Source: Bacteroidota bacterium (lineage in GTDB: Bacteria > Bacteroidota > Bacteroidia > Flavobacteriales > Flavobacteriaceae). From it: DNA of 64,000 bases. Position 1 is the first letter of the stretch; each line of letters starts with the position of its first letter. The stretch covers positions 10,851 to 74,850 of the forward strand of contig JADFOK010000011.1 of NCBI GenBank assembly GCA_022562895.1, written 5' to 3'. The notes below the pieces were generated by a model that ran no database searches, had not been told where the DNA came from, and was given only the letters and a program-made list of their open reading frames with translations. Of the stretch, positions 4,374 to 20,184 are shown piece by piece. Both the position numbers and the translations under genes were made by a program.

Positions 4374-5270
4374 TTATAATTTCTCAGCAACTCGAAGCTT
4401 TGCACTACGGGCCCTGTTGTTTACTTTTATTTCTTCTTCAGAAGGTATTTTAAATTTGCCTATAGGTTTAAAAGGCACTTTCACCCTGCCAAAGACATCT
4501 TTTTCTGGCTCTCCTTCAAAGAGGCCGCTTCTTATAAATCTTTTTACCAACCTATCTTCCAAAGAATGATATGAAATAAGACTCAACCGTCCACCGGGTT
4601 TTAAAACTTCTTGTGTTTGTGTTAAAAATTCTTTTAGAGCATCTAATTCTTGATTTACTTCTATTCTAATGGCCTGATAAACTTGCGCCAAGATTTTATA
4701 TTCTTTGTGTTTTGGTAAAAATTGTCTCAATGCACTTTTAAGTTCTTCAGTAGTAAGAATTGGTCCTTTTTCTCTAGTTTTAACTAAAAGTCTTGCCATC
4801 CCTGAAGCAGATCGTAACTCACCATATTTAAATAAAACATCCCTCAGTTGTACTTCGGAATATTTATTTACTACATCATAGGCCGAAAAATCTGCATTTT
4901 GATCCATTCGCATATCAAGATTTGCTTCAAATCGAGTTGAAAACCCGCGTTCAGCAACATCAAACTGATGAGATGAAACTCCAAAGTCTCCTAATATTCC
5001 ATTTACGCTGGTATATCCTTGAAAACGTAAAAATCGTTTGAAGAATCTAAAATTTTCGTTAATTAATAAAAAACGAGAATCATCAATAACATTTTCCAAT
5101 ACATCTTTATCTTGATCAAAAGCAATTAATTTTCCATTTATATCAAGCCTGCTTAGTATCTCCCGTGAATGTCCACCACCACCAAAAGTTACATCCACAT
5201 ATACTCCATTAGGTTGGATGTTAAGACCATTTACAGCTTCGGTTAACAATACCGGATTATGATATTCCAT
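4374..5270 (-). CDS. rsmH: 16S rRNA m4C1402 methyltransferase
   Basis: HNPVLL, DVTFGGGGHS, DFGVSS, ISYHSLEDR, RARSAKLR; MEYHNP start chosen. Confidence 0.97.
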   Translation of the reverse strand: MEYHNPVLLTEAVNGLNIQPNGVYVDVTFGGGGHSREILSRLDINGKLIAFDQDKDVLENVIDDSRFLLINENFRFFKRFLRFQGYTSVNGILGDFGVSSHQFDVAERGFSTRFEANLDMRMDQNADFSAYDVVNKYSEVQLRDVLFKYGELRSASGMARLLVKTREKGPILTTEELKSALRQFLPKHKEYKILAQVYQAIRIEVNQELDALKEFLTQTQEVLKPGGRLSLISYHSLEDRLVKRFIRSGLFEGEPEKDVFGRVKVPFKPIGKFKIPSEEEIKVNNRARSAKLRVAEKL

Positions 5271-5730
5271 TGTTATCATCACTTTCTTCTCCCATTACTT
5301 CTTCGGCCAAATCAGCGAAATCATTGGCTGTATCATTAATAGCTTGTTCATATTTACTTTTATCCCAGATTTCAACAATATTAATTGCTGAAGAAATTAC
5401 TATCTCATTACTAATTCCCGCAATAGATGCAAGGTCTTTAGGAATAAGTATTCTACCCGTTGAATCCATCTCAACAGTCTTTACTCCAGCTGTAAACCGC
5501 CGGATAAAATCATTGTTCTTGCGGTTAAAACGGTTAAGTTTACCCATTTTCTGCATCAGTAATTGCCATTCCTCCATTGGGTACAACTCCAGGCATGGCT
5601 GAAAAACAGCGCGCTTAATAACAAACCCGTTTGTAGAAACAGGAGCTAACTGTTTTTTTAAAGCCGAAGGCAACATCAATCGTCCTTTTACATCTGCTTT
5701 GCACTCGTATGTCCCAATTAAATTGAGCAT
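5257..5730 (-). CDS. mraZ: Transcriptional regulator MraZ
   Basis: DVKGRLMLP and DSTGRILIP repeats, EIWD; first gene of dcw cluster. Confidence 0.96.
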   Translation of the reverse strand: MLNLIGTYECKADVKGRLMLPSALKKQLAPVSTNGFVIKRAVFQPCLELYPMEEWQLLMQKMGKLNRFNRKNNDFIRRFTAGVKTVEMDSTGRILIPKDLASIAGISNEIVISSAINIVEIWDKSKYEQAINDTANDFADLAEEVMGEESDDNNGIS

Positions 5731-5778
5731 GAGGGGATTTTTTTTTTAAAATATAGTTTCAAATATATAGAACATTTA

Positions 5779-5802
5779 CCACATTTTACCACATTTTACC
5801 AC
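5779..5802 (-). promoter_or_regulatory. MraZ-binding direct repeats (3x GTGG at 10-nt period)
   Basis: Minus strand GTGGTAAAATGTGGTAAAATGTGG about 50 nt upstream of mraZ; MraZ is known to bind GTGG/TGGG-type repeats in its own promoter. Confidence 0.75.
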
Positions 5803-5929
5803 AATGTTAATAAGTTTTATCACATCTGGTGGTATAACTTCTAAATTTTTAAAAAACAAGGTGTTGTAATATTTTTAAACCGAAAAATAAAATTGCTTAC
5901 TTTTGCTTTGCTAATTGCATTAACCAAAT

Positions 5930-6694
5930 ATGGCTCATAAGATTAATAAAGAGGGGAAATTTACATATCTAGACATAGGGGAAGGAACTCCGGTTATCAT
6001 ATTACATGGGCTTATGGGTGGTTTAAGTAACTTTGATGGTATAATAAATTTTTTTCCTGAAAAAGGGTATCGAATTTTAATCCCCGAGTTACCTATTTAC
6101 AAAATGTCCCTGATTAAAACCAATGTAAAGAGTTTTGCAAAATATGTATCTGAATTTATTGATCATATGGGTTTTAATAAAATTATTTTATTGGGAAATT
6201 CTCTTGGAGGTCATATTGGTCTGTATTGTAGTAAATCTTTTCCTAAAAAATTAACAGCATTAATTATCACTGGGAGTTCTGGTTTATATGAAAGTGCGAT
6301 GGGTGGTTCATTCCCAAAACGTGGTGATTACAATTACATTAAACAAAAAGCTGAAGATGTTTTTTATGACCCTGCAATTGCTACTAAAGAAATCGTAGAT
6401 GAGGTTTTTGCTTCAATTAACGATAGAAACAAACTAATACGTACCCTTGCAATTGCCAAAAGTGCAATTCGCCATAATATGTCTAAAGATTTACCGCATA
6501 TGCCAACACCAACTTGTATTATATGGGGTAAAAATGATACGGTAACATCTCCTGATGTTGCAATAGAATTTCATGATCTACTCCCGGACTCCGATTTATT
6601 TTGGATTGATAAGTGTGGTCATGCACCGATGATGGAACATCCAGATGAATTTAATAAAATTCTCTTCGCCTGGTTACAAAAACGGGAATTTTAA
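5930..6694 (+). CDS. Alpha/beta-fold hydrolase
   Basis: HGLMGG oxyanion motif, GNSLGG nucleophile elbow, GHAPMME His. Confidence 0.9.
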
Positions 6695-6704
6695 TCCAAA
6701 AAAA

Positions 6705-7310
6705 ATGCAGATTAAATCGGCAGAATTTGTGGTAAGCAACACTAATGTTGACAAATGCCCCAAAGACAGACTCCCAGAATATGCTTTTATAGGTAGGTCT
6801 AATGTTGGGAAATCGTCACTTATTAATATGTTAATGCAACGTAAACATTTGGCCAAAACATCGGGTAGACCAGGAAAAACACAATTAATCAATCATTTTA
6901 TAATAAATAAAAATTGGTATTTGGTCGATTTACCCGGCTATGGTTATGCACGGGTCTCAAAAAGTAACAAAAAAGTATTTCAGAAGTTTATCACCCAATA
7001 TTTTAAAAACCGTCAACAATTAGTCCTGGCTTTTGTGTTGATAGATTCCAGGCTTGAACCTCAAAAAATCGATTTAGAATTTATGGAATGGTTGAGTGAA
7101 AATCAAATTCCCTTTTCTATTATATTTACCAAATCCGATAAATTAAAACCCAACGCTCTAAAACGAAACATAGATGCATATTCGATTAAGATGCTTGAAT
7201 CTTGGGAGGAAATGCCACATTATTTTGTCAGCTCTTCAAGTAAAGGAACAGGACGCGATGGATTATTAAATTATATTGCTGATGTCAATTTACAGGTAAA
7301 CGATTTGTAA
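6705..7310 (+). CDS. engB: Ribosome biogenesis GTPase EngB/YihA
   Basis: [20 protein letters not shown]; MQIKSAEF start. Confidence 0.96.
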
Positions 7311-7669
7311 TTAAATCAATTAGTTAATTAAAAAAAGTCAGTATATATAATTCATTAGAAGAAATAAACACATTTAATACCCATCCTTCCTAAGAAAATA
7401 TAAATAGGTAAGTCACTCCAATATTTATTTAGTATTGTTGTTGTCTTAAAATTGTATTGAGTCTGAAATTCATCAAGATGATAAAACTTCATATTATAAG
7501 TAGATTTTTGTCTATAAATTCTGCCAAAACTAATCTTCTTTAAAAACTCAAAAGGTTTTGGCCTATACATTACATTCGCAAGTGGAAGGCCTTACAATTT
7601 TATGTAAACTCTCCAACCAGGTATTTAACTTACCTGAATTAGTATTATAGACCAAGGTGAGTTGCTTTT

Positions 7670-12705: not shown

Positions 12706-13683
12706 TTACTTTTTTCGATCAATCACATAATTAACCATAAGCTCTAATGATTCTTTATAAAGAGTTGTGGGATACGATAACAAAAGAAGTAATGCTTGTT
12801 GTTGATATTCTTTCATTTTTGAAACAGCATAGTCCAGTCCGCCCTTGGATTTTACAAAAGCGATAACCTCTTTAACTCGTTTTCTATCTTTGTTATGATT
12901 TTTAATTGAATTAATAATCCAACTTTTTTCTTTTTCTGAACAATTATTAAGTGTATAAATTAGCGGAAGTGTCATCTTTTGTTCTTTGATATCGATACCG
13001 GTAGGTTTTCCTATTTTTTCTTCTCCATAATCAAAAAGATCATCTTTTATTTGAAATGCCATACCTATAAGTTCCCCAAACCGTCTCATAGTTTCAACCT
13101 CTTCTTTTGGTGCGTTAACAGATTGTGCGCCCATAGCACAACATGCAGCGATGAGGGTGGCTGTTTTTTGGCGTATAATATCAAAATACACATCTTCGGT
13201 TATATCTAGATTTCGTGCTTTTTCTATTTGCAGTAATTCTCCTTCGCTCATCTCTCTTATGGCAACCGATATTATTTTCAACAAATCAAAATCGCTATTA
13301 TCAATGGATAATAACAACCCTTTTGAAAATAGATAATCCCCCACTAATACGGCAATTTTGTTTTTCCAAAGGGCATTAATAGAAAAAAAACCTCGCCTCG
13401 TATTGCTTTCATCAACAACATCATCATGTACTAAAGTTGCTGTATGAATTAATTCTATTACAGAAGCACCACGATACGTACGGTCATTTACTTCACCATT
13501 ATTTGTCATCTTAGCAATAAGAAAAACAAACATAGGTCGCATTTGTTTTCCTTTACGGTTTACCACATAATGTGTAATACGGTTTAGAAGAGAAACTTTG
13601 GAAGACATTGAAAGTAGAAACTTTTTTTCAAAAAGTTCCATTTCATATTCAATAGGAAGTTTTATTTGTGAGACTATCTTCAT
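12706..13683 (-). CDS. Polyprenyl diphosphate synthase (IspB-like)
   Basis: GKQMRP, LVHDDVVD, FQIKDD aspartate-rich motifs. Confidence 0.93.
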   Translation of the reverse strand: MKIVSQIKLPIEYEMELFEKKFLLSMSSKVSLLNRITHYVVNRKGKQMRPMFVFLIAKMTNNGEVNDRTYRGASVIELIHTATLVHDDVVDESNTRRGFFSINALWKNKIAVLVGDYLFSKGLLLSIDNSDFDLLKIISVAIREMSEGELLQIEKARNLDITEDVYFDIIRQKTATLIAACCAMGAQSVNAPKEEVETMRRFGELIGMAFQIKDDLFDYGEEKIGKPTGIDIKEQKMTLPLIYTLNNCSEKEKSWIINSIKNHNKDRKRVKEVIAFVKSKGGLDYAVSKMKEYQQQALLLLLSYPTTLYKESLELMVNYVIDRKK

Positions 13684-13734: not shown

Positions 13735-16278
13735 TTATTTAGCTGTTGATACAATTTTATTTCTATAAAGTGATATATCAATGCATTTTTCCATCTCATT
13801 TTTTTTCAAATCGATACCTAAAAAAGATTGAATTTTATCAATTGCAACATTAGGATGATCAAGAACATCTTTATAATCAATATAAATTAATTCTACTCCA
13901 GGCTCTTTATTTTTCCATATTTCTATAGATTCTAATTGTTTTCTAAAAGCATTGTATAGACTTACAGGGAATATATCCGGATTTTTTCCAATCATTTTTT
14001 GTTGGGATTTAATTATCTCGTCTAAATTTCGTTTCATGAAAATGATTTTATACCTGTATTTGAAATCTAAATGTTTTAATAAAGGTGCTACAATTTTTAC
14101 AGATTTATCCTTGGCTTGATCAAGCCAAGAATTATCTTTGTGTATAGACTTTACCGGTTCAAATTCATAATAACCTTTTGGGTTCGACTCATCTGCTTTT
14201 CGTTTCTGGTCAACTAATGAATCTAACCCTCCTTTATCAAGCATCTGCATCATTAACGAAGTACCGGATCTTGGTAAACCCGATACAATTACAATTTGTT
14301 CTTTTCTATATTTGTACTGTATTTTATCCCTTAATTTTAAAGGTGTAGTGATTTTTTCTACGATATTTTCAAGAGCCTTCTCTGCTTTATGATATGTTTT
14401 TGCTTTAAGTGTCGTAGCTGTTTTAAAAGCAATTTTTGCATTTTCAAGGTCTCCCAATTTTTCTAATGCTCTTCCTAACATATAATGAGCAGCTGGAAAA
14501 TACTTAACCAACTCTATACTTGTAAATGCATGTTCAGCAGATTCTTGATATTCTTTTAACTCAAAAAGGGCTTCTGAAATTCCTCTATGGTATTTCGCTT
14601 TATCGGATTCTATCTCTATAGCATTTTCAAAGGCTTTTTGAGCCTCTTTAAAATTTTCAAGTGTCAAATTAACACTACCTATTCTGAACCATACCTCTGC
14701 ATTAGGTTTTCTGTTCTTAGCATCTATTAATACTTTTAATGCTTTACGATTATATCCTTTTCCTGCTAATATTTGTGCTTCGATAAAGTATGTGTTGTAA
14801 TTTACTTTGGTTTTAATCTTGTTAAATTCTGTAAAATATTTTTCTGCGTCATTAAAATTTTCTAATCCCAAATTTACATTTATAAGGTCTAAATAATATG
14901 GGGCTACGTCTATAGGGTCTTCTTCTTCAATTAAATCTAATAAAAGCTCTTTTGCTTTTTCAAAATCTTTTTTCCCCAAATAGACACGGGCAAGATTGTG
15001 TTTTAAATCACATTTAGTTTTGTGAATAGCCGTTTCAATTTTCTCATCAGGACGTTCAATATATCCTAATTCAATCAGTTGTTCCATCGTTTCCTCATCT
15101 GAGAAATTATCCTCAACTTCTTCTTTTTTTAATTCGGCAAAATCTCCCTTCACATCTTCCCAACTCTCAATATATTTTGGAGGCTTTGTATCTATAAATA
15201 TATCCAAAATTACCTTTCCGTCCATATCCTTGCCTACGGGAAGACCGAAATGATGAAGCACTGTTGGTGCTATATCAATTAAACTAAGTCCAAATATTTT
15301 TTCATTCTTTTTAATATTGGGACCACTTGCCACAAAAATTCCGAACTGCCTATGATCTAAAGCAGGTGCTGCAGCAACCTTTGGCATTTTTAATATTCGT
15401 TTGTTACCAGACTCAAAACCATGGTCCGACATGATTATTACTGTAGTATCCTCATCTATTAAATCAAGAACCCTCCCTAACATCATATCCTGGAAACGAT
15501 AAGCTCCTACAACAGCATCTTTAAAAATATCAAATTGGTCTTGAGAAATTCTGGAAAGTTTTGGAGGATGGTATTTCATAAAAGAATGGCAAAAGTGATC
15601 TATCAAATCAAAATATATTGCCATAAAATCCCATTTGGATTTTCGTAATAAATAAGTAGAAGCATTGTGTACGGAAACATTTTGAGACATTATTTTGGAA
15701 AACTCCCTGAGTCCACTTTTTTTATCTTCTTGATTTATTTTAGCTGCTTTGGGTATAATAGGGAGTATGTGCTCTTTCGTAATTTCAAAAGGGAACATTC
15801 TCAAATCTTTTAGTTCGTTTATTAAATGTTTGGGGTGAATGGTGCCCTCAACAATTCCAGTTGATTTAGTAGGATCTGCACTTACCCTTTGAAATTTATC
15901 AGAGACAACTACCCCATTAATAGGTTCTGCCGGGAAACTGGGCCACCAACCCACAATATTACTTTTAAAACCTTGATTATGCAGAATATTCCATATGGCT
16001 CTAGATTTTCTTGAATTTGTTGTTACCGGCCTAAGACCCTTTTTATTCGGTAATACTTCAATAAAACCTAATACACCATGTTTATCCGGTGTTTTACCGG
16101 TGGCGACAGAACTCCACAGCATAGGGCTATAAGGTGGGTTCATGGTACTCATGTTACCATACACTCCAGTATCAATCATTTTTTTTAAAGAAGGCATTAA
16201 CCCTTTAGCCAACAAAGGCCCTATTATTTTCCAGTCAGCCGCATCCCAGCCAATCAATAGCAATTTATTTTTTATCAT
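13735..16278 (-). CDS. Alkaline phosphatase/nucleotide pyrophosphatase-fold + TPR + PAPS-dependent sulfotransferase fusion
   Basis: N-term IGWDAADW, SPMLWSSVATGK, DLIDHFCH, SDHGF; central helical TPR-like repeats; C-term SGLPRSGTS and MKRNLDEIIKS; no signal peptide. Confidence 0.85.
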   Translation of the reverse strand: MIKNKLLLIGWDAADWKIIGPLLAKGLMPSLKKMIDTGVYGNMSTMNPPYSPMLWSSVATGKTPDKHGVLGFIEVLPNKKGLRPVTTNSRKSRAIWNILHNQGFKSNIVGWWPSFPAEPINGVVVSDKFQRVSADPTKSTGIVEGTIHPKHLINELKDLRMFPFEITKEHILPIIPKAAKINQEDKKSGLREFSKIMSQNVSVHNASTYLLRKSKWDFMAIYFDLIDHFCHSFMKYHPPKLSRISQDQFDIFKDAVVGAYRFQDMMLGRVLDLIDEDTTVIIMSDHGFESGNKRILKMPKVAAAPALDHRQFGIFVASGPNIKKNEKIFGLSLIDIAPTVLHHFGLPVGKDMDGKVILDIFIDTKPPKYIESWEDVKGDFAELKKEEVEDNFSDEETMEQLIELGYIERPDEKIETAIHKTKCDLKHNLARVYLGKKDFEKAKELLLDLIEEEDPIDVAPYYLDLINVNLGLENFNDAEKYFTEFNKIKTKVNYNTYFIEAQILAGKGYNRKALKVLIDAKNRKPNAEVWFRIGSVNLTLENFKEAQKAFENAIEIESDKAKYHRGISEALFELKEYQESAEHAFTSIELVKYFPAAHYMLGRALEKLGDLENAKIAFKTATTLKAKTYHKAEKALENIVEKITTPLKLRDKIQYKYRKEQIVIVSGLPRSGTSLMMQMLDKGGLDSLVDQKRKADESNPKGYYEFEPVKSIHKDNSWLDQAKDKSVKIVAPLLKHLDFKYRYKIIFMKRNLDEIIKSQQKMIGKNPDIFPVSLYNAFRKQLESIEIWKNKEPGVELIYIDYKDVLDHPNVAIDKIQSFLGIDLKKNEMEKCIDISLYRNKIVSTAK

Positions 16279-16528
16279 TTTCTTTTTTTCGGGATTCTTT
16301 TTTTATTTTTCTCCATGCCGTAAATGCAAGATCACCAAAAGCCAATAAGCCCAAAGAGCCATCAATTGGAATCTTGGAAAAGTCTATTTTTTTTTTCTTC
16401 ACTTTAAAAATATTTTTGTTTTATAACTTGAATTATACTACATTTATATTTGTATTTACTTTAAACCATATAGTTAATTTTTTTTTTTTCATAAAACAAC
16501 AAAAGTTAACTAATAAAACCATAAAATT

Positions 16529-17326
16529 ATGACAAAAATTACTAAAAACAGTTTTTCAAAAAAATTAGCTAAGTATAGTGCATTATCGCTTGCCATAGCT
16601 GGAGTTGCTAATGCTTCAGGACAGATAGTTTATACCGATGTTGATCCAGACTTTATAGGTGGATTAGGTGATACTTATGCTATCGATTTCGATGGAGATG
16701 GCATAATTGATCTTAATATAGTACAATCCAATAACGGTGCTTATGAGATTATACATGCTGCCCCTACAGGCACAAATGGTGTTCTTGCAGATGTAATTGG
16801 GGCTTACACTTACGCTTCTAACCTTTCATATGGGGCGGTTATTAGTTCTGGACTAACGTTTCAAAGTTTTGGTGATTGTTGCGCTGGTATAGGATATGCT
16901 GGAAGCCAATTTTGTGGTTCAGTGGACGCTTTTTTTGGTGTAGAGTTTGACCTTAGTGGCGGCACTCATTATGGATGGATTCGAGTAGATATTGCAGATA
17001 ACTCAAACTATGTAGTTAAAGATTTTGCTTATGAATCAACTGCTGGAGATCCAATTAATGCAGGAGAAACAGACCCTTTAGCTATTGATGATTTTGCAAC
17101 CAGCAACTTCAATTATTTTATAGACACCAACAGCCTGTTAAATCTATTGGCCGCCTCTAATATGGAGAGCGTTCAACTATTTAATATTCTTGGACAACAA
17201 GTTATTTCTCAGAAATTATCAAACATGAATGAAGTAATTGATATGTCTGCTTTAAAATCTGGAGTTTATTTTGCAAAAGTTACCATAAATGGAAATAACA
17301 AATCTTTTAAATTAGTAAAGAAATAA
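16529..17326 (+). CDS. Small secreted protein with T9SS C-terminal sorting domain
   Basis: Signal-like leader KKLAKYSALSLAIAGVANA; CTD LFNILGQQV...LKSGVYFAKV...KLVKK. Confidence 0.85.
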   Translation: MTKITKNSFSKKLAKYSALSLAIAGVANASGQIVYTDVDPDFIGGLGDTYAIDFDGDGIIDLNIVQSNNGAYEIIHAAPTGTNGVLADVIGAYTYASNLSYGAVISSGLTFQSFGDCCAGIGYAGSQFCGSVDAFFGVEFDLSGGTHYGWIRVDIADNSNYVVKDFAYESTAGDPINAGETDPLAIDDFATSNFNYFIDTNSLLNLLAASNMESVQLFNILGQQVISQKLSNMNEVIDMSALKSGVYFAKVTINGNNKSFKLVKK

Positions 17327-17354: not shown

Positions 17355-17378
17355 AAAGAGCGACAAATGTCGCTCTTT
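17355..17378. terminator. Bidirectional intrinsic terminator
   Basis: Perfect hairpin AAAGAGCGAC-AAAT-GTCGCTCTTT between convergent genes. Confidence 0.85.
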
Positions 17379-17380
17379 TT

Positions 17381-18421
17381 TTAATGCTTATTTGCTAGCT
17401 GTCCACAAGCAGCATCTATATCTTTTCCCCGGCTTCGTCTAACAGTAACCGGAATCCTGTTTTTTTCTAATGCATTAATATAGGCTTCTATAGATTTAGT
17501 GGAAGCCTGTTTAAAATCGTCGTCATCAATTGAATTATACTCAATCAGGTTAACTTTACAGGGAACCTTTTTACAGTATCTTAAAAAGGCATCGATATGA
17601 TCATCATTATCATTTATTCCCTCCCAGATAATGTATTCATACGTAATTCTTCGTTTTGTTTTTGTATACCAATAGATTAAAGATTCAAGCAAATCTTTTA
17701 AATTAAGCTTGTCAGCAAAGGGCATGATTTGTTCTCGAGTTTCTTGTATTGCCGAATGTAATGAAACAGCCAGATTAAATTTAACTTTGTCATCGGCTAG
17801 TTTTTTAATCATTTTTGGCACCCCTGAAGTCGATAATGTAATGCGTTTTGGTGACATCCCTAATCCTTCTTTAGAGGTTATTTTTTCTATCGCATTAATA
17901 ACATTTTTATAATTCATTAACGGTTCACCCATTCCCATAAAAACCACATTAGAAAGTGGTCTTGAATGGTACAATCTACTTTCTTTGTCAATCGCCATTA
18001 CCTGATCGAAAATTTCATCGGGATTAAGGTTTCTCATTTTCTTTAAACGAGCAGTAGCACAAAATTTACAATCTAGGCTACATCCAACCTGAGAAGATAC
18101 ACAGGCAGTTGTTCTTGTTTTTGTAGGAATTAATACGGACTCTACTATGAGACCGTCGTGAAGTTTAACTGCATTTTTTATAGTACCATCTTTGCTTTTT
18201 TGTATGCTATCTACTTCTATATGATTTATCACAAAATGTTCTTGTAATAATATACGTTTATCCTTTGAGATATTAGTCATATCCTCAAAGTGATGAGCTC
18301 CTTTTGTCCAAAGCCATTCATAGACCTGGTTTCCTCTATAGGCTTTATCACCAATGCCTTCAAAAAAATCCCTTATTTCTTTTTTTGATAGAGCCCGTAT
18401 GTCTTTCTTTTTAGAAATCAT
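17381..18421 (-). CDS. rlmN: Dual-specificity RNA methyltransferase RlmN
   Basis: CVSSQVGCSLDCKFC radical SAM motif, FMGMGEP, DIDAACGQL. Confidence 0.97.
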   Translation of the reverse strand: MISKKKDIRALSKKEIRDFFEGIGDKAYRGNQVYEWLWTKGAHHFEDMTNISKDKRILLQEHFVINHIEVDSIQKSKDGTIKNAVKLHDGLIVESVLIPTKTRTTACVSSQVGCSLDCKFCATARLKKMRNLNPDEIFDQVMAIDKESRLYHSRPLSNVVFMGMGEPLMNYKNVINAIEKITSKEGLGMSPKRITLSTSGVPKMIKKLADDKVKFNLAVSLHSAIQETREQIMPFADKLNLKDLLESLIYWYTKTKRRITYEYIIWEGINDNDDHIDAFLRYCKKVPCKVNLIEYNSIDDDDFKQASTKSIEAYINALEKNRIPVTVRRSRGKDIDAACGQLANKH

Positions 18422-18513: not shown

Positions 18514-20184
18514 TTATCGTTTGATAATAATTTTTTTTGTTATATCTGCTTTACTATCTTTATCGATAAGGTGAAGAAAATATATTCCTTCACTAAGGGT
18601 TTCCACATTAATTTCATTAAAAGTATTAGAAATATTTCCTTTCATTAACTGTTGACCAACAACATTATAAAAACGATATACCAGATTAGGATACCTGCCA
18701 TTCATAATTGTAATTACTGTACTTGCCGGATTTGGGTAGATATCTAAATTTCCTGTAATTTCATTATCTGGAATACTCAATATATTCCGAATACTTTCGG
18801 TAGTAGATTGTCCAGTACCTAAAGGATCAAGCCAATCTATTAATCGTGTATCAGAAGTAGTGCCCGTATTCCAGGAAACACCAAATCTTCCGTAAATATC
18901 ATAATCATTGTTGTTCTGTGTACCAATACAAAAAGATTGTCCTGCATATAATTGTCCAATAATTCTTCCTTCCTGATTAAACAGTGGAGATCCTGATGAA
19001 CCACTTTCGGTGGTTCCAATTTCCCACCCATCACCGGTGCCTACAGATATTCCACCAATTAGCCATATCTCAGTACCATTGGCATTTTCCTTAACGGCTC
19101 CAGAATCATCCCTGCATATTTTCATAATATCACCATTAGGATGGTGAATTCCAACTTCAAATATTGGTAAATCTTCAGAGTTATCCCACCCTGCAAATGT
19201 CACATCCCATGATTCAGGAATATAATTGTGAAGCTGTACAAGAGCAAAATCACTAAGTGAATTATTAGCTTTTATATCTGCACCACTCATAGTAAAATTA
19301 GACTGTATGTCTGTACTATCATCTCCAAGACCACAAACAGGACTCGGACTCATCCAATTAAAACGAACCGACCAAAATGATGGGTCACTATTTTCTAAAC
19401 AATGGTTTGAAGTGAGCAGATAAGGTGTCTTATCTCCAGCAGTTGTATTTATCAATGATGCGGAACACAAATACCCATTCCCCAAATTAAGCAAAGCCAC
19501 AGCCTTTTTTACAATATCTTTTTTTACATCAAAATCATTTCCTATGGGACAGTTTACATCATAATTACAATCCCCTGAATCGTTTAATCCTCTAATAACC
19601 TCTGCTAGTCTATTTACTCTTCCCATTCGATAGCCATGAATAATACTTCCTATTTCTAAATGTACACTCTCATTCACATAAGCTGGTTCATAATACTCTA
19701 TCCAAATAATATCGCCTCTAATAAACCAAGAACCTAAAAGCTTATTATCTCGATTTTGATTTTTCGAATAGGTTCGGGAAATATCGGTGCGGTCATCGTT
19801 ATAAAGATGTAATTTTGAGCCGGTTGGTAAATAAAAATCGTTAAAGTTAACACTCAAATTAATTGCATCTGGTGATTTTATAGCTATTTGCCAGATCTTA
19901 GCGCCACCGGGTAATGTAGTCCATACCCCATCATGTTCTATATCCAATACCAACTGGCGAGTAATGCCATACCGCCAGGGCAGACTTTTATCCAGGTCAT
20001 TTATACTATCTTCAATGGCAATTCCTTCAATATTTAAGGGAGGAAGCTCTATTGGGATTATTCTAGAATTGTTATTTATCCCGAAGTCTCGTGACCAACT
20101 AAAAGGCAATTCTCCTTCAATATCTTGAGAAAAAGACATAAAAAAAGGAACGAATAAAAAAAATAAAAGTGTAATCTTTTTCAT
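18514..20184 (-). CDS. T9SS-secreted trypsin-like (lysyl endopeptidase family) serine protease
   Basis: Signal peptide, long prodomain, triad TSNHC / SDFAL / GSSGSP, CTD IYPNPA...LSEGIYFL. Confidence 0.9.
   Translation of the reverse strand: MKKITLLFFLFVPFFMSFSQDIEGELPFSWSRDFGINNNSRIIPIELPPLNIEGIAIEDSINDLDKSLPWRYGITRQLVLDIEHDGVWTTLPGGAKIWQIAIKSPDAINLSVNFNDFYLPTGSKLHLYNDDRTDISRTYSKNQNRDNKLLGSWFIRGDIIWIEYYEPAYVNESVHLEIGSIIHGYRMGRVNRLAEVIRGLNDSGDCNYDVNCPIGNDFDVKKDIVKKAVALLNLGNGYLCSASLINTTAGDKTPYLLTSNHCLENSDPSFWSVRFNWMSPSPVCGLGDDSTDIQSNFTMSGADIKANNSLSDFALVQLHNYIPESWDVTFAGWDNSEDLPIFEVGIHHPNGDIMKICRDDSGAVKENANGTEIWLIGGISVGTGDGWEIGTTESGSSGSPLFNQEGRIIGQLYAGQSFCIGTQNNNDYDIYGRFGVSWNTGTTSDTRLIDWLDPLGTGQSTTESIRNILSIPDNEITGNLDIYPNPASTVITIMNGRYPNLVYRFYNVVGQQLMKGNISNTFNEINVETLSEGIYFLHLIDKDSKADITKKIIIKR

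Follow-up and report, generated by a model that had tools for sequence, protein, structure and literature searches.

A predicted cytoplasmic AlkP–TPR–sulfotransferase protein and its adjacent exported cargo: a candidate leader-directed modification module in Flavobacteriaceae and other bacteria

The stretch of DNA analyzed here (64,000 nucleotides of the Flavobacteriaceae contig JADFOK010000011.1, hereafter the window) contains two divergently transcribed genes that are the subject of this study. One encodes a protein in which an alkaline phosphatase/nucleotide pyrophosphatase-phosphodiesterase (AlkP/NPP)-like domain is followed by a tetratricopeptide repeat (TPR) array and a sulfotransferase domain (hereafter the enzyme), and the other encodes a small protein with a type IX secretion system (T9SS) C-terminal sorting domain (CTD) (hereafter the cargo). 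The pair is flanked by an ispB-like prenyl-diphosphate synthase gene (12706–13683) and by rlmN (17381–18421), and this rlmN/ispB slot is syntenic across many Flavobacteriaceae. The features of the locus are as follows:

13735..16278, minus strand: gene of the three-domain enzyme, 847 aa (open reading frame (ORF) and Pfam)
15079..16278, minus strand: AlkP/NPP-like phosphoesterase domain, residues 1 to ~400, with a complete two-metal site and the putative nucleophile Ser51, ending in the conserved "L..LGYIE"
14347..15039, minus strand: TPR array, residues ~414–644, 13 helices forming about 6 repeats and a cap (TPR families of Pfam, helices of the AlphaFold2 (AF2) model)
13759..14301, minus strand: compact sulfotransferase domain of the type using 3'-phosphoadenosine 5'-phosphosulfate (PAPS), residues ~660–840 (Sulfotransfer_1 and Sulfotransfer_3)
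16529..17326, plus strand: cargo gene, 265 aa (ORF)
16529..16621, plus strand: special leader of the cargo, residues 1–31, MTKITKNSFSKKLAKYSALSLAIAGVANASG, with Gln32 next to it at the probable site of signal-peptidase cleavage
16622..17083, plus strand: passenger of the cargo, a beta-sandwich of ~150 aa belonging to no curated family
17108..17326, plus strand: T9SS type A CTD, residues 194–265, with the stop codon
16279..16528, no strand: divergent spacer, 250 bp, AT-rich (sequence)
17355..17378, plus strand: intrinsic-terminator-like hairpin 3' of the cargo gene, a 10-bp stem followed by a T run

This layout agrees with an earlier description of the locus made from the letters and ORF translations (hereafter the sequence-only reading), in which an 847-aa AlkP–TPR–sulfotransferase protein without a signal peptide, a 265-aa T9SS substrate across a 250-bp divergent spacer and a position between core genes had been proposed. 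All of the motifs quoted there were found, with the Pfam matches above the cut-offs; the ORF coordinates and the TIGR04183 match corresponded to the T9SS substrate, and both the ispB-like and rlmN flanks were recovered.

The enzyme has no signal peptide, its N-terminus being directly the first AlkP strand (MIKNKLLLIGWDAADW), and it is predicted to be a cytoplasmic protein composed of AlkP/NPP-like, TPR and sulfotransferase domains. Phosphodiest (PF01663) matched residues 6–303 (2e-28, 100.4 bits at a cut-off of 23), several TPR families matched residues ~420–640 above their curated thresholds, and both Sulfotransfer_3 (PF13469, 36.3 at a cut-off of 27) and Sulfotransfer_1 (PF00685, residues 663–834, 32.4 at a cut-off of 22) were identified. 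The motifs of the AlkP domain were GWDAADW (residues 10–16), SPMLWSSVATG (51–61), DHFCH (227–231) and SDHG (284–287), and those of the sulfotransferase domain were RSGTS (670–674) and R750...S758. Comparison of 25 representatives at 31–44% identity revealed that residues D12, S51, D227, H231, D285, H286, H309, G405 and Y406 of the AlkP domain were invariant; by analogy with NPP and alkaline phosphatase, we take D12, D227, H231, D285, H286 and H309 to be metal ligands and S51 to be the nucleophile. The 5'-phosphosulfate-binding (5'-PSB) loop G667–S674 (GLPRSGTS), the 3'-phosphate-binding (3'-PB) residues R750 and S758, and a further block of the sulfotransferase domain (R693/D696/N699/G702/Y703/E705) were likewise invariant. 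Since the metal ligands, Ser51 and the 5'-PSB and 3'-PB residues are retained at this level of identity, both catalytic domains appear capable of catalysis. The catalytic His of cytosolic sulfotransferases (SULT; KTHLP) was aligned with V730 of KIVAP (phmmer alignment to SULT1D1 and SULT1C3); consequently, the base is expected to be another residue, the invariant E705 and D696 being candidates by analogy with enzymes of the TPST type.

The sequence similarity of both catalytic domains to solved structures was marginal (E ~0.01–0.03, the best value for AlkP being ~0.02), and the similarity to TPST2 was confined to the P-loop region (E ~0.02, residues 3–33 of the sulfotransferase domain). The AF2 model of the enzyme was of moderate confidence (predicted local distance difference test (pLDDT) of 74). 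Its best structural matches according to Foldseek were the TPR superhelices of OGT and SPINDLY, which are protein-modifying enzymes whose TPRs hold protein substrates, and its N-terminal domain matched ENPP7 (5tcd, 7e-8) as well as ENPP1, ENPP3 and sulfatases (E ~1e-7). By analogy, the TPR array is presumed to be a peptide-docking module. More than 4000 homologues of the enzyme were present in a collection clustered at 90%, at most under the name "alkaline phosphatase family protein", and an exhaustive search (E ≤ 1e-30) yielded 2936 clusters at 50% identity; the full three-domain architecture was retained in at least 150 of them (33–46% identity, 800–1050 aa).

In the cargo leader, the n-region is long and basic, the h-region is rich in Ala and Gly and only weakly hydrophobic, and an invariant tyrosine, Tyr16, sits at the boundary between the two. 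On its sequence alone, it can be read as an n-h-c signal peptide with A-S-G preceding Q, the h-region being unusually weak; a Q rule at the signal-peptidase I site is characteristic of Bacteroidota. The consensus leader of enzyme-adjacent cargos, MKKxTxxKLSKxLxxYGALSxAIAGVADAxGQ, was unusually conserved for a signal peptide, with Y16 invariant and L13, A18 and G25 conserved in at least 90% of cases. The cargo was the only leader-bearing ORF found in the genome of the window; therefore, the enzyme has one client here. Two known types of export signal were considered for this leader and rejected. The Ala/Gly-rich h-region resembles that of twin-arginine translocation (Tat) signals, and TatC is encoded in the genome, but none of the leaders contained a twin arginine, the position of the Tat motif S/T-R-R-x-F-L-K being occupied by KK, KR, QR, RW or KL. 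The resemblance to extended signal peptides of the extended signal peptide region (ESPR) type was superficial, with no Pfam ESPR match and no second h-region.

In the AF2 model of the cargo (pLDDT 82), the leader formed a low-confidence N-terminal helix, followed by a confident beta-sandwich (residues 33–170, pLDDT ~90) and the CTD. The CTD was recognized by TIGR04183 (47.5 bits at a cut-off of 23) and PF18962 (35 bits), and its model was superposed on the solved CTDs of mirolase, NucA and FspA (template modelling (TM) score for the target of 0.67–0.78, Foldseek). A DxDxDG-type loop (IDFDGDGIIDL) and the motif THYGWIRVD are present in the passenger, which matched no family of Pfam or NCBIfam apart from sub-threshold floc_PepA matches; in the PDB, Foldseek revealed no match for its fold, the CTD alone being recognized. 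The Tyr-rich core and the CC...C cluster emphasized in the sequence-only reading are present (13 Tyr; Cys at positions 117, 118 and 129) but proved uninformative, the discriminating residues being Tyr16 of the leader and, more weakly, Tyr95 and Cys129 of the passenger.

The distribution of both genes was analyzed in 301 Flavobacteriaceae genomes, about one per genus. The enzyme was present in 35 genomes and the passenger domain in 38, and 33 of the 35 enzyme-bearing genomes also contained the passenger domain; in the 34th (G053), an adjacent divergent cargo gene was rescued by blastp, and in the 35th (G205), a leader-bearing ORF was located at a contig end. Enzyme and cargo were neighbors in essentially all cases of co-occurrence. 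The usual arrangement was divergent, in the rlmN/ispB slot (about 22 of the examined Flavobacteriaceae loci), while convergent (G097, G184, G106) and co-directional (G039) pairs, tandem cargo copies (two or three, in G159, G296 and others) and second enzyme–cargo pairs elsewhere in the same genome (G136, G296) were also found, so that the pair was seen in at least 10 unrelated contexts. A 32-position hidden Markov model (HMM) of the leader matched the same 35 enzyme-bearing genomes and 0 of the 266 others (Fisher p = 1.4e-46). In a hand-picked set that included genomes outside model building, the HMM matched 40 of 40 enzyme-bearing and 0 of 25 enzyme-less genomes. We regard the functional coupling of enzyme and cargo as nearly certain.

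The leader, and not just the passenger, is the element that tracks the enzyme. In five genomes that contained a passenger homologue without the enzyme, all of the homologues had ordinary, strongly hydrophobic signal peptides. In one of the enzyme-less genomes, G173, three passenger paralogues occupied the same rlmN/ispB slot, with leaders that read MKTKFLSKLNNRLLLVLVCF... The mean maximum hydropathy of the leaders over nine residues was 2.06 in linked and 2.94 in unlinked members (p = 2e-4), the net charge of the n-region was +4.7 and +2.7, respectively, and the linked leaders were also longer; such a profile would be expected where export is slow and post-translational. All linked members had Tyr16 (100%), and no unlinked member did (0%). 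In the passenger, Tyr95 was found in 93% of linked and 0% of unlinked members, and Cys129 also stood out in the linked group; both residues lie in a variable-loop region that was compared with only eight unlinked sequences, and both are candidates only.

An APS (adenosine 5'-phosphosulfate) kinase gene (PF01583, E = 6.5e-67) was identified in the genome of the window (G000:C23:4859-5305). Such a gene was found in 31 of 31 enzyme-bearing genomes of at least 90% completeness and in 17 of 25 genomes without the enzyme (p = 8e-4), its presence being a necessary condition only. In four lineages (G407, G343, L096 and L151), cysC or cysD together with cysN-cysC was located inside the locus itself. 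The distribution of APS kinase and the recruitment of cys genes thus tie the module to PAPS chemistry.

In a phylum-level sample, the enzyme was detected in seven further genomes. In G689, it was followed by a T9SS cargo with the leader KKLKAYSAIAG, and in G407 the order was enzyme, APS kinase, T9SS cargo. In G343 (locus L071, G343:C71:9000-26000), which belongs to another class of the phylum, the AlkP–TPR part (694 aa) and the sulfotransferase (186 aa) were encoded by separate adjacent genes; the locus read micro-ORF, AlkP–TPR, sulfotransferase, two T9SS cargos (KKLLAYSLAAG), cysD, a cysN-cysC fusion and an NMT1-like ABC binding protein, and is a complete-looking sulfation operon. In G415 (L072), the enzyme was flanked by small lipoproteins whose lipobox signal peptides carried K.I.QYSALA. 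In this locus and in L144 (Chitinophagales), there were 4–5 flanking lipoproteins (~195–220 aa) homologous to the C-terminal half of the passenger, some of which had the QYSALA motif, while their paralogues had ordinary lipoprotein signal peptides. In G442 (L070, G442:C1:398000-415000), the enzyme gene was in three pieces, split by an opposite-strand ORF of 325 aa, possibly a transposase; this looks like a recent inactivation of the enzyme, as the adjacent cargo keeps an intact Tyr-leader. In G370 (L073, G370:C27:34000-48000), four AlkP-like paralogues, one of them with TPRs and an N-terminal hydrophobic segment, were interleaved with genes for ATP sulfurylase (sat) and APS kinase (cysC), which suggests a link of the AlkP domain itself with APS/PAPS chemistry. 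The contigs of distant representatives included two more T9SS cases and two with an upstream passenger homologue ending in a PEP-CTERM signal.

A scan with one genome per species gave 80 named loci from Bacteroidota, Planctomycetota, Verrucomicrobiota, Victivallales, Acidobacteriota, Desulfobacterota, Methylococcales, Nitrospira and a cyanobacterium. Among marine flavobacteria, genera with the pair include Dokdonia, Lacinutrix, Psychroserpens and Aequorivita. Of the 80 loci, 53 had one or more passenger homologues within 5 kb of the enzyme, usually within 300 bp. The sorting signal of the cargo depended on the lineage: cargos of Bacteroidota had the T9SS CTD, those of Planctomycetota, Verrucomicrobiota, Methylococcales and others had PEP-CTERM, and those of some Chitinophagales had a lipoprotein signal. 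Both PF07589 and TIGR02595 exceeded their cut-offs in the neighbors of L107, L113, L123, L154 and L153, and PF07589 only in that of L131. The motif [LW]xxY[SGAT]xxAG was kept in about 60 of 71 cargos when the N-termini were read by eye, a regular expression having counted 40. Thus, the constant parts are the enzyme, the N-terminal Tyr-leader and the passenger, while the C-terminal sorting signal is interchangeable; therefore, the module is not T9SS-specific, and the restriction of the sequence-only reading to T9SS-bound proteins was too narrow. Overall, that reading is partly supported, those of its expectations that could be examined by computation being borne out: the two families co-occur, side by side, in the same 35 of 301 genomes; PEP-CTERM analogues outside Bacteroidota do sit beside the enzyme; the leader, which it had regarded as the element linked to recognition, tracks the enzyme (35 genomes against 0 of 266, with ordinary signal peptides in enzyme-less genomes); and PAPS-synthesis genes were located elsewhere in the genome as APS kinase and, in other lineages, in the locus as cysC or cysD-cysNC.

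Several further observations concern the loci of distant lineages. In at least 10 Bacteroidota loci outside Flavobacteriaceae, a micro-ORF of 50–113 aa with the motif (E/P)GSLGLLALGY(K/R)GL..WR(K/R) was located directly upstream of the enzyme (L074:5778-6014, L071:9871-10092, L104:4181-4438, L108:300-569, L114:1909-2148, L150 ~4809, L159 ~1454, L148 ~2263, L068 ~9125 and L134 ~728), and in L080:6001-8676 it was fused to the N-terminus of the enzyme. Its motif closely resembles the PEP-CTERM sorting signal (compare the C-terminus of the L113 cargo, VPEPGSLALLALGGAGLVAWRKRRK). The micro-ORF, which the window lacks, fell into no family of Pfam or NCBIfam; its product could tether the enzyme to a membrane or represent the relic of a recognition peptide. 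In Chitinophagales and Saprospiraceae, the three-domain enzyme was found as two tandem paralogues (L148:2455-4923 and 4959-7565; L159:1765-4308 and 4980-7586), with no recognizable passenger homologue nearby. Locus L090 (OMJU01000164.1), labelled Candidatus Rokubacteria, contained a pair of the Flavobacteriaceae type (58% identity of the enzyme, T9SS cargo with the leader MKKITSKNLSKRLAQYGAMS) and probably reflects mis-binning of the contig, not a gene of Rokubacteria. L075 (P0259 context) encodes a three-domain homologue of 1027 aa beside gyrase genes and a gene of the CesT family, which resembles type III secretion chaperones. No passenger homologue was present, and the enzyme of this lineage may have a different client.

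In the spacer of the window, the sequence TATATTTG was found at 16445–16452 on the plus strand, 77 nt 5' of the cargo start codon; it matches the Bacteroidota -7 consensus TAnnTTTG and is a candidate promoter element. No Rfam match was found in the spacer (16279–16528), and a sigma-70-type promoter scan, which is uninformative for Bacteroidota, gave no result above shuffled sequences. Two genes from the cargo (18514–20184, minus strand), a secreted protein of 556 aa with an ordinary signal peptide and a T9SS-type CTD-like tail (...GIYFLHLIDKDSKADITKKIIIKR) is encoded; the homologue of this gene belongs to a conserved queA/rlmN synteny block in many relatives.

Protein sulfation is, to our knowledge, scarcely known in bacteria, with RaxST/RaxX as the single well-studied case. 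This system of bacterial protein tyrosine sulfation (Xanthomonas oryzae, with PAPS synthesis by RaxPQ) is the closest known to the one described here. In both, the gene of a cytoplasmic PAPS sulfotransferase adjoins that of an exported substrate (a putative one in the present case) with a removable N-terminal leader, and PAPS-synthesis genes are sometimes located in the locus; with TPSTs, the enzyme shares a 5'-PSB loop of the PRSGT(S/T)L type. However, the enzyme differs from RaxST by the addition of AlkP-like and TPR domains, and its likeness to the Rax system is one of general outline rather than of demonstrated family membership. RaxX is a peptide resembling ribosomally synthesized and post-translationally modified peptides and is exported by a peptidase-containing ABC transporter, whereas the cargo is a folded beta-sandwich of ~150 aa that would pass through Sec and then T9SS, exosortase or Lol, and its recognition element appears to be embedded in the signal peptide. 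OGT and SPINDLY likewise have a TPR superhelix fused to a catalytic domain and offer a model for capture of the leader as an extended peptide; their catalytic domains are unrelated (a GT41 glycosyl/fucosyl transferase compared with sulfotransferase and AlkP), and OGT has many substrates, whereas the enzyme has one to few dedicated neighbors. With ENPP1/3/7 and the AlkP superfamily, including PptA and EptC, the N-terminal domain shares its fold, a two-metal site and a hydroxyl nucleophile. PptA and EptC are protein phospho-form transferases, AlkP-superfamily domains thus being able to modify proteins. Unlike these proteins, which are secreted or membrane-anchored, the domain described here is predicted to be cytoplasmic and soluble, has Ser instead of Thr as the putative nucleophile, is fused to TPR and sulfotransferase domains and has only marginal sequence similarity to the solved members. 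Finally, a conserved motif in or before the signal peptide that is specific to an exported class is also known from ESPR (type V secretion), YSIRK/GS and Tat signals; the motif described here differs in that a cytoplasmic enzyme, and not a translocon, is its covarying partner, in addition to the lack of a twin arginine and of a Pfam ESPR match.

On balance, we consider it somewhat probable that the enzyme carries out a leader-directed modification of the pre-protein, probably O-sulfation, before or during Sec export. From these sequences, we infer the binding of the leader by the TPR array, the protein as acceptor, sulfate as the added group, the position that receives it and what the AlkP domain does. 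According to this model, the two genes would form a dedicated enzyme–substrate module, and the enzyme would remain in the cytoplasm, the only compartment holding PAPS. The TPR array would capture the N-terminal leader of the neighboring pre-protein, as OGT captures its substrates, the leader acting as a Sec-type signal peptide that should favor slow export after translation. With the pre-protein held in this way, the sulfotransferase domain would move sulfate from PAPS to one of the hydroxyls of this protein, the candidate acceptors being Tyr16 of the leader and Tyr95 of the passenger. The AlkP-like domain may remove the inhibitory by-product 3'-phosphoadenosine 5'-phosphate (PAP) or may perform a second phosphoester step, adding or removing a group, on the same substrate. 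Afterwards, the protein would cross the membrane through Sec, lose its leader, probably before Gln32, and be secreted by T9SS via the CTD.

Several results weigh against this model of leader-directed modification. An acceptor in the mature part would require SecYEG to let the modified pre-protein through, whereas with Tyr16 of the leader as acceptor, the modification is discarded together with the signal peptide, so that a further rationale is needed. In the split forms, the TPR part stays with the AlkP domain and not with the sulfotransferase, and in L073 no sulfotransferase domain was seen within 14 kb; these two facts imply that AlkP may be the substrate-facing activity and more than a PAP scavenger. 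The AF2 model of the enzyme has a pLDDT below 50 at residues 46–92, around the nucleophile loop. In 27 of the 80 distant loci, no passenger homologue was visible, some of these loci lying at contig ends and some having divergent PEP-CTERM or T9SS neighbors. The within-family co-occurrence statistics are inflated by shared ancestry and by the joint loss of adjacent genes; the natural experiment of G173 and the many independent contexts do not rest on these statistics.

A narrower variant, to which we assign a rather low probability, is that the acceptor is the invariant tyrosine of the signal peptide itself, the cytoplasmic enzyme sulfating or otherwise esterifying the n/h boundary of a Sec leader. 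The modification could then gate or time export, or the cleaved leader could become a sulfated signalling peptide, by analogy with the pheromones that are cut from lipoprotein signal peptides. In such a case, reversal or completion of the reaction might fall to the AlkP domain, and the PEP-CTERM-like micro-protein could tether the machine to the membrane by the translocon.

Comparably unlikely, in our view, is that the enzyme sulfates and/or phospho-modifies a small molecule, a lipid or a glycan precursor and that the exported cargo binds, scaffolds or processes the product at the surface. Glycolipids, Nod factors or metabolites are the substrates of most PAPS sulfotransferases that have been characterized in bacteria; the passenger, with its Ca-loop-like DxDxDG and unmatched fold, could be a lectin; a glycosyltransferase-like neighbor was present at L068; and the PEP-CTERM partners outside Bacteroidota fit a surface or exopolysaccharide theme, PEP-CTERM proteins being associated with exopolysaccharide. 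However, a non-protein product leaves unexplained why a signal peptide, which never reaches the surface, covaries perfectly with a cytoplasmic enzyme and why ordinary signal peptides take its place in enzyme-less genomes. Moreover, no polysaccharide or lipid biosynthesis genes were conserved around the pair, which consisted of two genes only in at least 10 contexts.

Still less probable is that the enzyme serves as a leader-binding chaperone or gatekeeper whose TPR grips the pre-protein at its signal peptide and releases it to Sec according to sulfur or phosphate status, which the two catalytic-looking domains would sense, with no lasting covalent modification. The TPR segment does resemble the class II secretion chaperones LcrH/SycD (8e-7, far below the cut-off) and remains with the AlkP domain in split forms, and the low hydrophobicity and high charge of the leader are typical of chaperone-assisted post-translational export. 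Nevertheless, the invariance of the catalytic, metal and PAPS-binding residues of both domains across phyla argues for catalysis over sensing, PAPS-synthesis genes have been recruited into the locus, and an 847-aa two-enzyme protein would be costly for one client of 265 aa.

The adjacency could, lastly, be historical and non-functional, through joint acquisition into the rlmN/ispB slot and joint inheritance or loss of two genes with unrelated roles; the sharing of one slot by about 22 Flavobacteriaceae loci does make many of the observations non-independent, and a single deletion would take both genes, but this explanation is very improbable given that the pair recurs in other slots, orientations, duplicates, families, classes and phyla and with other sorting signals, that G173 keeps the passenger in the same slot without the enzyme and with a changed leader, and that the sulfotransferase is split off in a Rosetta-stone-like manner and cys genes are recruited.

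In full-text literature searches, neither this fusion nor the leader was encountered, nor was any report of sulfated T9SS or PEP-CTERM cargo. Taken as a whole, the data point to an apparently undescribed, multi-phylum form of protein modification ahead of export, probably a variant of bacterial protein sulfation. If the module does sulfate exported proteins, it would represent a widespread post-translational modification pathway for surface proteins, the enzyme family being spread over at least eight phyla, and would provide the first function for a signal-peptide-embedded motif that a cytoplasmic enzyme reads. One shared upstream step would then link the cargo of T9SS, of exosortase/PEP-CTERM and of the lipoprotein route. 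The system is tractable, with two genes, a one-to-one pairing of enzyme and putative substrate and clear point mutants, and would yield a compact tool for site-directed sulfation.

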